26,279 bases of DNA, from the UHGV virus genome UHGV-0017443. One strand, given 5' to 3'. The stretch comes from a virus. Shown here in pieces: positions 3,665 through 9,946 of this stretch. Positions within the stretch are counted from its first letter, which is position 1. Every line of letters begins with the position of its first letter. The translations under genes and the position numbers were made by a program. Under the pieces are notes generated by a model. The model was not told where the DNA came from. It made no database searches and saw nothing but the letters and a program-made list of their open reading frames with translations.

Positions 3665-5037
3665 AACAGGATATCGAAGCGAGCGTTATCGGTGGACTGC
3701 TGATTGGTGGATTAACACCAACTGCCAGTGACGTTCTGGCAACGCTTGAGCCGGAAGCGTTTTCAATTCCGCTCTACCGGAAAGCCTTCGAGGTTATCCG
3801 CAAGCAGGCGCGAAACAGAAACCTAATCGACGCGCTGATGGTTGCCGAGGCGTGCGGAGAGGAGCATTTTACGTCAATCCTGATGACCAGCAAAAACTGC
3901 CCGAGCGCCGCAAACCTGAAGGGATATGCCGGAATGGTCGCGGATAACTATCACCGCCGTCTGGTGCTGGAAATCATGGATGAAATGCGTGAACCAATTC
4001 AGAGCGGAACCATCGACGCATCGAGTCAGGCGATGGATGAACTTGTAAAGCGTCTTTCAGCCATCAGAAAGCCCCGTGACGAGGTAAAACCTGTACGGTT
4101 AGGGGAAATCATTACTGACTACACTGACACGCTTGACAGGCGTCTGAGGAACGGAGAAGAGTCCGATACCCTGAAGACCGGAATCGAAGAACTTGATGCC
4201 ATCACCGGAGGGATGAACGCGGAAGACCTGGTGATAATCGCTGCTCGTCCTGGTATGGGGAAAACCGAACTGGCGCTGAAGATTGCCGAAGGCGTTGCAA
4301 GCCGCGTTATTCCTGGTTCTGACGTCCGGCGCGGGGTATTGATTTTCTCAATGGAAATGAGCGCATTGCAGATTGCAGAGCGAAGCATTGCCAACGCCGG
4401 GAGGATGTCGGTTAGCGTACTGCGAAATCCTGCATCGATGGATGACGAAGGCTGGGCGCGTGTTGCTAACGGCATGAGTCAGCTTGCAGATTTGGATGTA
4501 TGGGTAGTCGATGCCTCGCGGTTATCGGTAGAAGAAATTCGCTCAATCGCAGAGCGGCACAAACAGGAAAATCCAAACCTGTCACTCATCATGGCGGATT
4601 ATCTTGGCCTGATTGAGAAGCCGAAAGCAGACCGCAACGACCTCGCAATTGCTCACATCTCCGGAAGCCTGAAGGCGATGGCGAAAGACCTGAAAACGCC
4701 AGTTATCTCCCTGAGTCAGCTTTCGCGCGATGTTGAGAAGCGACCAAACAAACGCCCGACAAACGCAGATTTGCGTGATTCTGGAAGCATTGAGCAGGAC
4801 GCAGACTCAATCATCATGCTCTATCGGGAAGCGGTATATGACGAGAACAGTAGCGCCGCGCCATTTGCTGAAATCATCGTGACGAAAAACCGTTTTGGCT
4901 CACTTGGTACGGTTTACCAGCGGTTCTGTAACGGACACTTTGTTGCATGTGACCAGGATGAAGCCAGACAGATTTGCACAGCATCAAATGCACCTGCTGC
5001 ACGTGGCAGACGATATGCACAAGGGGCGGACGTATGA
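3661..5037 (+). CDS. Replicative DNA helicase (DnaB family; P22 gene 12-like)
   Basis: 458 aa; Walker [16 protein letters not shown], DnaB-type N- and C-domains; start overlaps the O-like stop (ATGA). Confidence 0.9.
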
Positions 5038-5931: not shown

Positions 5932-6098
5932 TTGACCCAAATCGAAGTTACGAACAACAAAGCGTCGAGCGGGCTTTAACGTGCGCTAACTGCGGTCAGA
6001 AGCTGCATGTGCTGGAAGTTCACGTGTGTGAGCACTGCTGCGCAGAACTGATGAGCGATCCGAATAGCTCAATGTACGAGGAAGAAGACGATGAATGA
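5928..6098 (+). CDS. ninF: NinF-like protein
   Basis: GTG start overlapping the ninD stop; [56 protein letters not shown] resembles lambda NinF. Confidence 0.65.
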
Positions 6099-6813
6099 GT
6101 TAATAAATGGCAATGCCATAAAAATGACAAGCATTGAAATCGCTGAGTTGGTGGGTAAGCGTCATGACAATGTGAAACGTACCATCGAAACGCTGGCTAA
6201 AAATGGTGTTATCCGGCTTCCTCAAATTGAGGTTTCCGAAAGAATCAATAACTTAGGGTTCAATGTTCAGTACGAGCATTACGTCTTCGAAGGCGAACAA
6301 GGTAAGCGAGATAGTATTGTTGTTGTTGCCCAGTTGTCGCCAGAGTTCACCGCTCGCCTTGTTGACCGCTGGCGAGAGCTTGAAGAAGCTGCGGTTAATA
6401 TCACCAAAACGCTACCAGAAGCGTTGCGCCTTGCTGCTGATCTTGCTGAGCAGAAAATGCAACTAGAAAACCAGCTCGCAATTGCCGCACCTAAAGTTGA
6501 GTTTGCCGAACGCGTTGGCGAGGCCAGCGGAATTTTGATTGGAAACTTTGCAAAGGTTGTCGGTATTGGTCCAAGCAAACTGTTTGCGTGGATGCGCGAT
6601 CACAAAATCCTTATTGCTTCAGGTTCCCGGCGCAATGTGCCAATGCAGGAATATATGGAGCGCGGCTATTTCACAGTGAAAGAAATAGCGGTCAATACAA
6701 ATCACGGAATACAGATATCGTTCACCACAAAAATCACCGGGCGTGGTCAACAGTGGCTGACCAGAAAGCTGCTCGATAACGGAATGCTGAAAGTAACAGG
6801 GGAGGCTGCTTAA
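6091..6813 (+). CDS. Antirepressor-like protein (N-terminal Rha-type domain, C-terminal ANT/KilAC-type domain)
   Basis: 240 aa; SIEIAELVGKRHDNVKRTIETL motif typical of the phage Rha regulatory family; the C-terminal half resembles phage antirepressor domains; inserted within the nin operon. Confidence 0.65.
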   Translation: MNELINGNAIKMTSIEIAELVGKRHDNVKRTIETLAKNGVIRLPQIEVSERINNLGFNVQYEHYVFEGEQGKRDSIVVVAQLSPEFTARLVDRWRELEEAAVNITKTLPEALRLAADLAEQKMQLENQLAIAAPKVEFAERVGEASGILIGNFAKVVGIGPSKLFAWMRDHKILIASGSRRNVPMQEYMERGYFTVKEIAVNTNHGIQISFTTKITGRGQQWLTRKLLDNGMLKVTGEAA

Positions 6814-7462: not shown

Positions 7463-7647
7463 ACGCCACAATTCAAACGATACCAGAGCTTCTTATCCAG
7501 ACACGAGGCAATCAGACCGAAGTGGCAAGGATGCTTTCCTGCGCAAGAGGAACAGTGCTCAAGTACAACCGAGACAGCAAAGGCGAGCGTCACGTAATAG
7601 TTAACGGCGTCCTGATGGTCAAACAGGGCAAGAGGGGAAGACGATGA
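7459..7647 (+). CDS. ninH: NinH-like protein
   Basis: 62 aa; IPELLIQTRGNQTEVARMLSCARGTVLKYNRDSKGERHVIVNGVLMV resembles lambda NinH (GNQTEVARRLKCSRGTVRKY). Confidence 0.7.
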   Translation: MNATIQTIPELLIQTRGNQTEVARMLSCARGTVLKYNRDSKGERHVIVNGVLMVKQGKRGRR

Positions 7648-8267
7648 GACTCGAAAGCGTAGCTAAATTTCATTCGCCAAAAAGCCCGATGATGAGCGAC
7701 TCACCACGGGCCACGGCTTCTGACTCTCTTTCCGGTACTGATGTGATGGCTGCTATGGGGATGGCACAATCACAGGCCGGATTCGGAATGGCTGCATTCT
7801 GTGGTAAGCACGAACTCAGCCAGAACGACAAACAAAAGGCTATCAACTATCTGATGCAATTTGCACACAAGGTATCGGGGAAATACCGTGGTGTGGCAAA
7901 GCTTGAAGGAAATACTAAGGCAAAGGTACTGCAAGTGCTCGCAACATTCGCTTATGCGGATTATTGCCGTAGTGCCGCGACGCCGGGCGCAAGATGCAGA
8001 GATTGTCACGGTACAGGCCGTGCGGTTGATATAGCCAAAACGGAGCAGTGGGGGAGAGTTGTTGAGAAAGAGTGCGGAAGATGCAAAGGCGTCGGCTATT
8101 CCAGGATGCCAGCAAGCGCCGCATATCGCGCTGTAACGATGCTAATCCCAAACCTTACCCAACCCACCTGGTCACGCACTGTTAAGCCGCTGTATGACGC
8201 TCTGGTGGTGCAATGCCACAAGGAAGAGTCAATCGCAGACAACATTTTGAATGCGGTCACACGTTAG
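7644..8267 (+). CDS. Q: Late-gene antiterminator Q (lambda-type)
   Basis: 207 aa beginning MRLESVAKFHSPKSPMMSDSPRATASDSLSG..., essentially the lambda Q sequence as I recall it, with its zinc-binding Cys cluster. Confidence 0.92.
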   Translation: MRLESVAKFHSPKSPMMSDSPRATASDSLSGTDVMAAMGMAQSQAGFGMAAFCGKHELSQNDKQKAINYLMQFAHKVSGKYRGVAKLEGNTKAKVLQVLATFAYADYCRSAATPGARCRDCHGTGRAVDIAKTEQWGRVVEKECGRCKGVGYSRMPASAAYRAVTMLIPNLTQPTWSRTVKPLYDALVVQCHKEESIADNILNAVTR

Positions 8268-8309: not shown

Positions 8310-8352
8310 TTGACTTTTTGAATAAAGTTGGGTAAATTTGACCCAAGAATGG
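8310..8352 (+). promoter_or_regulatory. pR' late promoter with qut-type elements (-35 TTGACT, 17 bp, -10 TAAATT, promoter-proximal -10-like AAGAAT)
   Basis: TTGACTttttgaataaagttgggTAAATTtgacccAAGAATgg matches lambda pR' through about +1; the lambda pause-inducing element AACGAT is AAGAAT here, after which the sequence diverges. Confidence 0.7.
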
Positions 8353-9030
8353 CAGATTTATATCCGTTCACATTCTTTCAGTTTTTACCCACCTCATCTT
8401 TAAGTTCTAAGCGCACTGACATGCGCATCATAAACTCGAGAGCACATAGGAATAGAGCCTGAGAAATATCGCCTTTGGCGACTTCTCTCGTGGTGATATT
8501 TCTATGTCAGCAGGCTCTAATATCTATGTGGTTCGCCTATGTTAAAACGTGAAGATGCATTGAGACTTTTTAATTACAATCCAGATACTGGAATTCTTAC
8601 ATGGAAGAATCCACCTCGGTCTTCTAGATTTATCTATGGCGCTGTTGTTGGCTATAAAACAAATGGATATCTGCAGGTAAAACTTTATGGAATGCGGCTA
8701 TATGTCCATAGAATTGCATGGCTGATGGTTTACAATGATTGGCCAGCCGATGTGATTGACCATATTAATGGTGATAGATCTGATAACCGGATAGCCAATC
8801 TTCGTGTTGTTACTAACACTCAAAACTCATGGAACAGCAAGATGAGGAAAAACAATTCATCTGGTGTGAAGGGGGTGACTTTTAATTCTGCTGCAAACAA
8901 GTGGGTTGGAAGAATTAGGGTCAATGGTAAAAGGATTCATGTAGGGTGTTTTGACGATATCGAGGAGGCGAGAAAGGCAATGGAAAATGCCAGGATAAAA
9001 TATCATGGTGAATTCTCCAGTATGGGATAG
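8353..9030 (+). mobile_element. About 0.68-kb insertion in the pR' leader carrying a free-standing HNH endonuclease gene
   Basis: Lambda-like sequence stops just after the promoter and resumes at GATGGGTTAATTCGCTCG (9031); both junctions carry an A-rich ATGG motif (AAGAATGG / GATAGATGG). Confidence 0.6.
8539..9030 (+). CDS. HNH homing endonuclease (HNH_3-type catalytic motif plus AP2-like DNA-binding domain)
   Basis: 163 aa; IDHINGDRSDNRIANLRVVTNTQN is an HNH motif; C-terminal GVKGVTFNSAANKWVGRIRVNGKRIHVGCFDDIEEARKAM resembles AP2 domains of phage homing endonucleases; AT-rich relative to its flanks. Confidence 0.8.
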   Translation: MLKREDALRLFNYNPDTGILTWKNPPRSSRFIYGAVVGYKTNGYLQVKLYGMRLYVHRIAWLMVYNDWPADVIDHINGDRSDNRIANLRVVTNTQNSWNSKMRKNNSSGVKGVTFNSAANKWVGRIRVNGKRIHVGCFDDIEEARKAMENARIKYHGEFSSMG

Positions 9031-9163
9031 ATGGGTTAATTCGCTCGTTGTGGTAGTGAGATAAAAAGAGGCGGCGCTTACTACCGATTCCGCCTAGTTG
9101 GTCACTTCGACGTATCGTCTGGAACTCCAACCATCGCAGGCTGAGAGGTCTGCAAAAATGCAA

Positions 9164-9222
9164 TCCCGAAACAGTTCGCAGGTAATAGTTAGAGCCTGCA
9201 CAACGGTTTCGGGATTTTTTAT
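9164..9222 (+). terminator. tR' (6S RNA) terminator of the late leader
   Basis: TCCCGAAAC...GTTTCGGGA stem followed by TTTTTTAT; the segment 9031..9222 matches the lambda 6S/tR' region as I recall it. Confidence 0.7.
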
Positions 9223-9224
9223 TT

Positions 9225-9299
9225 GGGTCAGTCGTATAAAGGTCATTACGGAAGGCTGTTAACCTTCTTATCGTGGTTCGAGTCCACGCTGTCCCGCCA
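9225..9299 (+). tRNA. tRNA-like gene, anticodon GTT (Asn), with one acceptor-stem mismatch
   Basis: Hand-folded cloverleaf: acceptor GGGTCAG/CTGTCCC (T-T mismatch at 4:69), D-arm with GG, anticodon stem GAAGG/CCTTC with loop CTGTTAA, T-arm CGTGG-TTCGAGT-CCACG, discriminator G, encoded CCA. Confidence 0.5.
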
Positions 9300-9304
9300 A
9301 ACAT

Positions 9305-9380
9305 GCTGGTTTAGCTCCAATGGTGGAGCAGTCGCCTTGTAAGCGAATGGGTAGCGGTTCAAGTCCGTTAACCAGCACCA
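9305..9380 (+). tRNA. tRNA gene, anticodon TGT (Thr)
   Basis: Perfect 7-bp acceptor stem GCTGGTT/AACCAGC, D-stem GCTC/GAGC, anticodon loop CTTGTAA, T-arm AGCGG-TTCAAGT-CCGTT, discriminator A, encoded CCA. Confidence 0.7.
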
Positions 9381-9622
9381 TAACTGAGCCGTAGCCACTG
9401 GCTATCCTGAATTCATCAGTGATAGTTACGATGCGGCCTTCTACACATGACCTTCGTGAAAGCGGGTGGCAAGAGGCTGCGCTAACAACCTCATGCCGTT
9501 TTGCCCGTGCATATCGGTCACGAACAAATCTGATTACTAAACACAGTAGCCTGGATTTGTTCTATCAGTAATCGACCTTATTCCTAATTAAATAGAGCAA
9601 ATCCCCTTATTGGGGGTAAGAC

Positions 9623-9946
9623 ATGAAGATGCCAGAAAAACATGACCTGTTAGCCGCCATTCTCGCGGCAAAGGAACAAGGCATCGGGGCAATCCTTGCG
9701 TTTGCAATGGCGTACCTTCGCGGCAGATATAATGGCGGTGCGTTTACAAAAACAGTAATCGACGCAACGATGTGCGCCATTATCGCCTGGTTCATTCGTG
9801 ACCTTCTCGACTTCGCCGGACTAAGTAGCAATCTCGCTTATATAACGAGCGTGTTTATCGGCTACATCGGCACTGACTCGATTGGTTCGCTTATCAAACG
9901 CTTCGCTGCTAAAAAAGCCGGAGTAGAAGATGGTGGAAATCAATAA
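9623..9946 (+). CDS. S: Holin S (class I, lambda-type, dual-start MKM motif)
   Basis: 107 aa, [41 protein letters not shown]..., matches lambda S as I recall it. Confidence 0.95.

Follow-up and report, generated by a model that had tools for sequence, protein, structure and literature searches.

An Asn-Thr tRNA cassette of the phage 21/Sf6 type in the late leader of a P22-like lambdoid phage, with a putative nuclease-resistant tRNA-Thr(UGU)

[quoted passage not shown] The pair is already known: it is the late-leader Asn-Thr tRNA cassette of the phage 21/Sf6 type, public records carry annotations of both genes, and the function of the Thr member was published in 2025-2026. We consider it likely, with a probability of roughly 0.7, that both tRNAs are functional, that the Thr tRNA resists nuclease attack and stands in for its host counterpart, that the Asn tRNA probably acts likewise, and that the pair also adds to the supply of decoding tRNAs.

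Results

Organization and transcription of the locus

The features of the late-control region that bear on the pair are the following.

7644..8267, plus strand: Q antiterminator, lambda-type, 207 aa (ORF list; position and length as for Q in the Kapi1 and lambda annotations)
8310..8338, plus strand: late promoter pR', lambda-type, TTGACT-17-TAAATT (promoter scan; alignment to lambda and Kapi1)
9163..9224, plus strand: tR' terminator, lambda-type, long hairpin and UUUUUUAUUU (near-identity to lambda; predicted hairpin)
9225..9299, plus strand: tRNA-Asn(GUU), 75 nt (ARAGORN and Rfam)
9300..9304, plus strand: spacer AACAT, 5 nt, between tRNA-Asn and tRNA-Thr
9305..9380, plus strand: tRNA-Thr(UGU), 76 nt (ARAGORN and Rfam)
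9623..9946, plus strand: holin S, lambda-type, the first protein gene 3' of the tRNA pair (ORF list, annotations and lambda alignment)

Alignment to lambda showed near-identity through the tR' hairpin and its T-run, then approximately 160 unrelated bases (about 9223-9381) in place of lambda sequence, and lambda homology again from AACTGAGCCGTAGCC (9382) to the start codon of S at 9623, from which point the lysis genes S, R and Rz are all lambda-type. The alignment thus bears out the first-pass annotation, made from the letters alone, in its description of a non-lambda segment of about 160 bp between tR' and the lysis genes. The tRNA pair begins 3 nt past the lambda-type tR', whose hairpin and trailing UUUUUUAUUU give the expected fold immediately 5' of G1 of tRNA-Asn; our scan missed tR' owing to its long loop, and the terminator was established through homology and folding instead.

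A consensus scan of the plus strand from the HNH ORF described below to S (8600-9700) returned no promoter-like site, and on this ground we set aside a promoter of the tRNAs' own. Because tR' lies directly upstream and no promoter intervenes, the tRNAs would be reached only by Q-antiterminated or leaky read-through transcripts; this dependence on read-through of tR' is suggested by the layout, and the transcript containing them presumably starts at pR'.

The late leader is itself interrupted by an insertion of about 685 bp (8346-9030), a few bases past the -10 element of pR'. Its ORF (8539-9030, plus strand) specifies a 163-aa endonuclease with HNH_3 and AP2 domains, and the 6S/qut leader picks up again at 9031. 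The left junction reads CCCAAGAATGG, compared with CCCAACGATGG in lambda and Kapi1, and therefore a -10-like pause element may survive. The insertion would be transcribed from the constitutive pR', upstream of the tRNAs. None of the phage records searched has it, and 16 of 5,426 E. coli genomes do, some of them together with the tRNA pair; among the 12 insertion-bearing genomes listed, the match covers the pair as well in five and stops just before it in seven. Elsewhere in the window, 3' of the lysis genes, there is a weak match to the int-alpA RNA (RF02996, 11316-11378, plus strand), whose 37.8 bits (E 1.3e-4) narrowly exceed the gathering score of 35.8.

Structure of the two tRNA genes

ARAGORN called exactly two tRNAs in the window, Asn (gtt) and Thr (tgt), and cmscan matched both to the Rfam tRNA family RF00005 over the full length of the model (1-71), at 55.3 bits (E 1.4e-9) for tRNA-Asn and 57.9 bits (E 2.8e-10) for tRNA-Thr, far over the gathering score of 29. 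The two programs agree with each other and with the earlier proposal of tandem genes with GTT and TGT anticodons and encoded CCA ends, for which a gene-finder search of the region had been suggested as a check. Both RNAs fold with a 7-bp acceptor stem, D, anticodon and T arms, and a 7-nt anticodon loop with U33, and the discriminator bases are G73 in tRNA-Asn and A73 in tRNA-Thr. The identity elements of E. coli AsnRS include G34, U35, U36 and G73, and those of ThrRS include G1-C72, C2-G71, G35 and U36; the respective window tRNAs have every one of these nucleotides, including the G1-C72 and C2-G71 pairs at the acceptor end of tRNA-Thr.

Neither gene is free of oddities. In tRNA-Asn, cmscan flagged two non-standard pairs, U4.U69 (acceptor stem) and U13.U22 (D stem), which are the T-T mismatch and the non-Watson-Crick D-stem pair reported in the first-pass annotation; its variable loop has 4 nt, its anticodon stem is GAAGG/CCUUC, and its anticodon loop, CUGUUAA, is the same as that of the host tRNA. 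The Thr gene had been described as canonical, which does not strictly hold, since the topmost pair of its anticodon stem is a G27.A43 mismatch and position 14 is occupied by C instead of A. Its anticodon arm is GUCGC-CUUGUAA-GCGAA, with G27.A43 and U28-A42. Nucleotide 21 of tRNA-Thr (9325, in the D loop) is G in the window and A in all relatives found; this private G21 could lengthen the D stem by pairing with C14. The best matches to the segment, in the phage and E. coli collections alike, have 99.4% identity, and no identical copy was seen in either.

Evidence for selection on tRNA structure

On the strength of its mismatches, the Asn gene had been suspected of being a pseudo-tRNA. We compared both genes with those of the Klebsiella phage ST16-OXA48phi5.2, and 10 of the 12 differences make up five compensatory pair changes. 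Six of the seven differences in tRNA-Asn form three double changes (6:67 A-U to G-C, 7:66 G-C to A-U and 28:42 A-U to C-G), and four of the five in tRNA-Thr form two (3:70 and 6:67, both U-A to C-G). The U4.U69, U13.U22 and G27.A43 mismatches are kept in both lineages. The compensatory changes, together with the kept mismatches, indicate selection for tRNA structure, and tRNA-Asn is moreover identical in Sf6, phage L and JLK-2012; this conservation and these changes lead us to reject the pseudo-tRNA reading of the Asn gene.

The same suspicion can be put more broadly: tRNA-Asn would be a non-decoding element of the leader, whether a pseudo-tRNA or a tRNA-like signal with a processing or structural role (for example, an RNase P cut site between the leader and the lysis mRNA). 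Its two non-standard pairs and 4-nt variable loop lend this some support, as does the statement of the phage L authors that it is not known whether the tRNAs leave the late mRNA by excision (PMC8022706). Against it stand the score of 55 bits for RF00005, the cloverleaf preserved by three compensatory pair changes, and the fact that lambda, which has no such element, expresses its lysis genes normally. The host-identical anticodon loop, with GUU and G73 as AsnRS identity elements, argues in the same direction, and we regard a non-decoding role as highly improbable.

The second tRNA of the cassette has fared differently in some relatives. In JLK-2012 (1584-1659 of the stretch examined), it is a chimera that joins a phage-type 5' half to a 3' half resembling host thrU, and its anticodon stem is broken; in phage L and ST64T (784-860 of the phage L stretch examined), it carries a 4-nt deletion and is degenerate, and its annotation reads tRNA-Leu(TAA). 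ARAGORN made no call for the second tRNA of either JLK-2012 or phage L/ST64T. Because these second tRNAs are degenerate or chimeric, the Thr gene is dispensable in some lineages.

Relatives and distribution of the cassette

The 162-bp segment differs from those of phage 21 and Sf6 at one position (9325) and from those of Kapi1 and mEp506 at two, the second being spacer position 9302, which is T in the latter phages. We found at least 80% of the segment in 59 phage records, many of which annotate tRNA-Asn and tRNA-Thr, and the segment itself in 369 of 5,426 complete E. coli genomes, where it is annotated by PGAP. BTP1 and SfI are further carriers. The Sf6 GenBank record places the genes directly after tR' and notes 'codon recognized: AAC; similar to phage 21', and the pair was described in the SfI paper (2013, PMC3636060) and the phage L paper (2020, PMC8022706) and is mentioned also in the Kapi1 and phage 21 genome papers. 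The earlier view that this pair differs from known cases is thus overturned by a published pair one base away. An 'aRNA' in the phage 21 record AJ237660 was considered as an alternative identity and rejected; it is a short late leader transcript (4652-4701) that merely abuts the tRNAs.

The position of the cassette, downstream of Q and between tR' and the holin gene, matches the annotations of Sf6, Kapi1 and mEp506. Its surroundings are mosaic: it lies behind a 21-type Q in phage 21, Sf6 and L, and behind a lambda-type Q in the window, HK446, Kapi1, mEp506 and phiv205-1. Longer arrays are built on the cassette at the same site, namely, Asn-Thr-Gly in JLK-2012 and Asn-Phe-Thr-Arg in Klebsiella phages. 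HK446 carries the segment at 98.8% identity between the same lambda-type flanks (JQ086372.1 / NC_019714.1, 35094-35255), and its GenBank records have no tRNA annotation at this segment. According to a 2026 preprint, HK446 'encodes a single' tRNA, Thr(UGU) (bioRxiv 10.64898/2026.07.10.737580); since the segment carries the Asn gene as well, that gene appears to have been overlooked in HK446.

Anticodon stems compared with host tRNAs

The anticodon arm of the window tRNA-Thr is the same as that of phage 21 tRNA-Thr21, without a single difference. At nucleotides 28-30 and 40-42 it has UCG/CGA, as opposed to CUG/CAG in the host tRNA, and the G27.A43 mismatch leaves four standard pairs in the stem. 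The window tRNA-Thr therefore combines the UGU anticodon with altered CNG motifs and a shortened anticodon stem, the sequence features that go with resistance to P2 OLD (see Discussion). In tRNA-Asn, the same nucleotides read AAG/CUU with C39, as opposed to CGG/CCG with U39 in host asnT, and nucleotides 36-41 read UAACCU, as opposed to UAAUCC in the host. The Asn tRNA keeps the GUU anticodon, has lost both CNG motifs and U39, and is changed around the 40|41 position, as would be expected of an Asn(GUU) tRNA resistant to AriB or OLD.

Codon usage

We compared the 26 genes of the window with 41 genes of E. coli K-12. ACA accounts for 15.7 per mille of codons (28% of Thr codons) in the window and 5.4 per mille (10%) in the E. 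coli sample, a 2.9-fold enrichment, and the Asn codons together account for 51.5 and 37.8 per mille, respectively, a 1.36-fold enrichment. The coat gene of the window has 21 AAC and 3 AAT codons, and ACA makes up 4 of its 42 Thr codons. The codons AGA, CGA, TCA and GGA are enriched to an extent equal to or above that of ACA, and no phage tRNA for them is present here. A comparison of codon usage had been proposed as a check in the first-pass annotation; its outcome bears the idea out in part, for ACA.

Discussion

Recent work has given the Thr member of this cassette a function. The effector of P2-lambda interference is P2 OLD, whose killing action is the cleavage of host tRNA-ThrU (UGU) (Govande et al., NAR 2025, PMC12445682); the cuts fall at CNG motifs, at nucleotides 28-30 and 40-42 (PMC12445682). 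Phage Thr(UGU) tRNAs rescue; the phage 21 tRNA-Thr21 'also protected against P2-OLD' and is resistant to cleavage in vitro, with a shorter anticodon stem and the changes C28U and G42A (PMC12445682). The Thr(UGU) tRNA of HK446 was reported to be a strong counter-defence that restored the plating of OLD-sensitive phages (bioRxiv 10.64898/2026.07.10.737580). Unlike the phage alleles, overexpressed host Thr(UGU) gave little or no rescue from OLD (PMC12445682; bioRxiv 10.64898/2026.07.10.737580), and therefore the phage sequence differs from that of the host in a functionally relevant way. Resistance to P2 OLD is thus supported by experiment for alleles that lie one or two bases from the segment, and we infer it for the window allele, which departs from them at D-loop nucleotide 21, because its anticodon arm is identical to that of phage 21 and because HK446 carries the segment. 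Since the plasmid-borne Thr tRNAs of phage 21 and HK446 restore ACA decoding or plating, charging of the near-identical window tRNA is implied. All of the rescue experiments used plasmid-expressed tRNA. A lone viral Thr tRNA did not rescue lambda, nor did it relieve OLD toxicity in recB cells, and HK446 needs the protein inhibitor Oad2 as well (bioRxiv 10.64898/2026.07.10.737580).

For the Asn tRNA, we found no published assay of a lambdoid member in the literature, and the argument proceeds from its targets and its stem. Host tRNA-Asn(GUU) is cut by P2 OLD, more slowly than ThrU. The main targets of AriB, the nuclease of PARIS, are Lys(UUU) and Thr(UGU), and Asn(GUU) is a secondary but biologically relevant one; AriB cuts at 40|41 beside a U36-A-A-U39 motif, and U39A in a tRNA-Lys substrate abolishes cleavage (PMC12409363). 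Because host tRNA-Asn is a weaker target of OLD and AriB and the phage copy is devoid of both host cleavage motifs, we infer that the phage Asn tRNA is most likely a second nuclease-resistant replacement, in this case for host tRNA-Asn(GUU). Against this, the Asn tRNA of the Klebsiella phage has a paired CNG (CAG/CUG) and that of P7 keeps U39, and any unrelated stem would by default be expected to lack such a motif. A universal rule of CNG loss in phage Asn and Thr tRNAs can be dismissed, given that the Klebsiella-phage Asn, P7 Thr and Cyrano Thr tRNAs retain a paired CNG. Evasion of a colicin E5-type nuclease by tRNA-Asn was likewise considered and dropped; its anticodon loop is that of the host, and nothing points that way.

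Taken further, the Asn and Thr tRNAs may together constitute a minimal counter-defence cassette of two tRNAs, directed at Toprim anticodon-stem nucleases of the OLD family (P2 Old, PARIS AriB or relatives), a proposal that we offer tentatively and hold at somewhat less than even odds. The same combination of Asn(GUU) and Thr(UGU) turns up in P7, Cyrano and N4, unrelated coliphages that have very few tRNAs. The two genes are adjacent in P7 (2425-2578) and Cyrano (5973-6125; coordinates of the stretches examined), with Ser(UGA) nearby downstream in both; in N4 (2337-2586 of the stretch examined), Ser(UGA) lies between Asn and Thr, and Pro(UGG) is present in addition. If the proposal is true, it would explain both the recurrence of Asn-Thr in lambdoid, P1-like, N4-like and Cyrano-like coliphages and the retention of the odd conserved mismatches. 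Lys(UUU) is required to beat the characterised PARIS system (PMC12409363); because the cassette has no tRNA-Lys(UUU), the main AriB target, it could not defeat that system alone.

The codon usage of the window raises the question of whether supply for the late genes, with no tie to defence systems, would suffice to account for the pair. Apart from the enrichment of ACA and of the Asn codons, the SfI paper finds the same ACA bias (17.3 vs 7.1, PMC3636060), the phage L coat gene has AAC for 24 of its 25 Asn codons (PMC8022706), close to the preference in the coat gene of the window, and a site in the late leader suits a demand that peaks with the structural proteins. Yet the coat gene is poor in ACA, and the SfI authors saw no bias that would account for Asn (PMC3636060). 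Because AGA, CGA, TCA and GGA go without a phage tRNA here and extra host Thr(UGU) gives little or no rescue from OLD, where the phage alleles do, codon supply is not the whole story. We regard pure codon supplementation as unlikely; as a second role it is compatible with nuclease resistance.

It has also been put forward, for HK446 (bioRxiv 10.64898/2026.07.10.737580), that prophage tRNAs make up for a host tRNA gene disrupted on integration, in keeping with a temperate lifestyle, and P22-like and SfI-type phages do often insert in tRNA genes, such as thrW and argW. The cassette, however, lies in the late leader behind a terminator and not beside int/attP, P22-type integration rebuilds an intact thrW (PMC8022706), and neither anticodon fits argW or thrW(CGU). 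The same pair is found despite differing sites (argW for Kapi1, thrW for SfI) and also in the plasmid prophage P7. The position of the cassette and the variety of integration sites speak against such a compensatory role, and we give it very little credence.

The reading that we favour, of two working tRNAs with at least one nuclease-resistant stand-in, may be set out as follows. The pair would be transcribed from pR' only when Q permits read-through of tR', or by leakage of the terminator, and the tRNAs would presumably be cut out of the late transcript by host tRNA-processing enzymes. An OLD-family Toprim nuclease (P2 Old, and probably PARIS AriB) would destroy host tRNA-ThrU, taken here as the sole host tRNA with a UGU anticodon, which decodes ACA; the phage Thr tRNA would survive through the absence of the paired CNG cleavage motif and its shortened anticodon stem, and would keep ACA decoding going. 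The Asn tRNA may do the same for host tRNA-Asn(GUU), the slower-cleaved target of the same nucleases, and both tRNAs could raise the capacity to decode codons that are more frequent in the phage than in its host (ACA and the Asn codons overall). One point against this reading is the placement in the late operon, which postpones the supply of tRNA until Q acts.

Among known systems, the closest is the pair of phage 21 and Sf6, found also in HK446, Kapi1, mEp506, BTP1 and SfI, which agrees with the window pair in gene order, 5-nt spacer and location, directly past the late terminator and ahead of the lysis genes. It differs in that the cassettes of the window, HK446, Kapi1 and mEp506 lie behind a lambda-type Q/pR'/tR' rather than a phage 21-type late module, and the window additionally has its private G at nucleotide 21 of tRNA-Thr and the HNH-endonuclease insertion in the upstream leader. 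The ban operon of P1 and P7 contains a tRNA-Asn-tRNA-Thr tandem with the same two anticodons in the same order and adjacency, and with a Thr tRNA about 79% identical to ours; however, the tandem is under the C1 repressor operator Op(ban) and not in a late leader, and in P7, unlike the window, the Thr tRNA keeps the paired CNG motif and the Asn tRNA keeps U39. The replacement tRNAs of virulent phages, such as the T5 Asn tRNA (Belukhina et al. 2025), share with the window pair the anticodons, the replacement of U39, a stem altered near the cleavage site relative to the host, and the logic of a cleavage-resistant replacement. They come from unrelated phages with large tRNA arrays and have low sequence identity to the window pair, which, by contrast, lacks Lys(UUU) and is under late-operon control in a temperate phage.

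In Stx phages (933W and relatives), ileZ-argN-argO lies downstream of Q, in the same niche between Q/pR'/tR' and the late genes. These tRNAs have other anticodons (for rare Ile and Arg codons) and presumably unrelated sequences, and their usual explanation is the supply of rare-codon tRNAs for stx and the late genes. The Stx-phage niche is analogous to the variable arrays found at this site in JLK-2012 and the Klebsiella phages.

The present analysis places the cassette of the window within the recently solved story of P2-lambda interference and draws attention to its Asn neighbour, which is free of both host cleavage motifs and was left uncounted in HK446 by the 2026 preprint. Asn(GUU) with Thr(UGU) forms a minimal set of tRNAs that coliphages carry time and again, and it fits two of the targets that OLD and AriB have in common. 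If the Asn tRNA is also nuclease-resistant, then small prophage tRNA sets may be readable as signatures of the tRNA-cleaving defences that a phage lineage has met.
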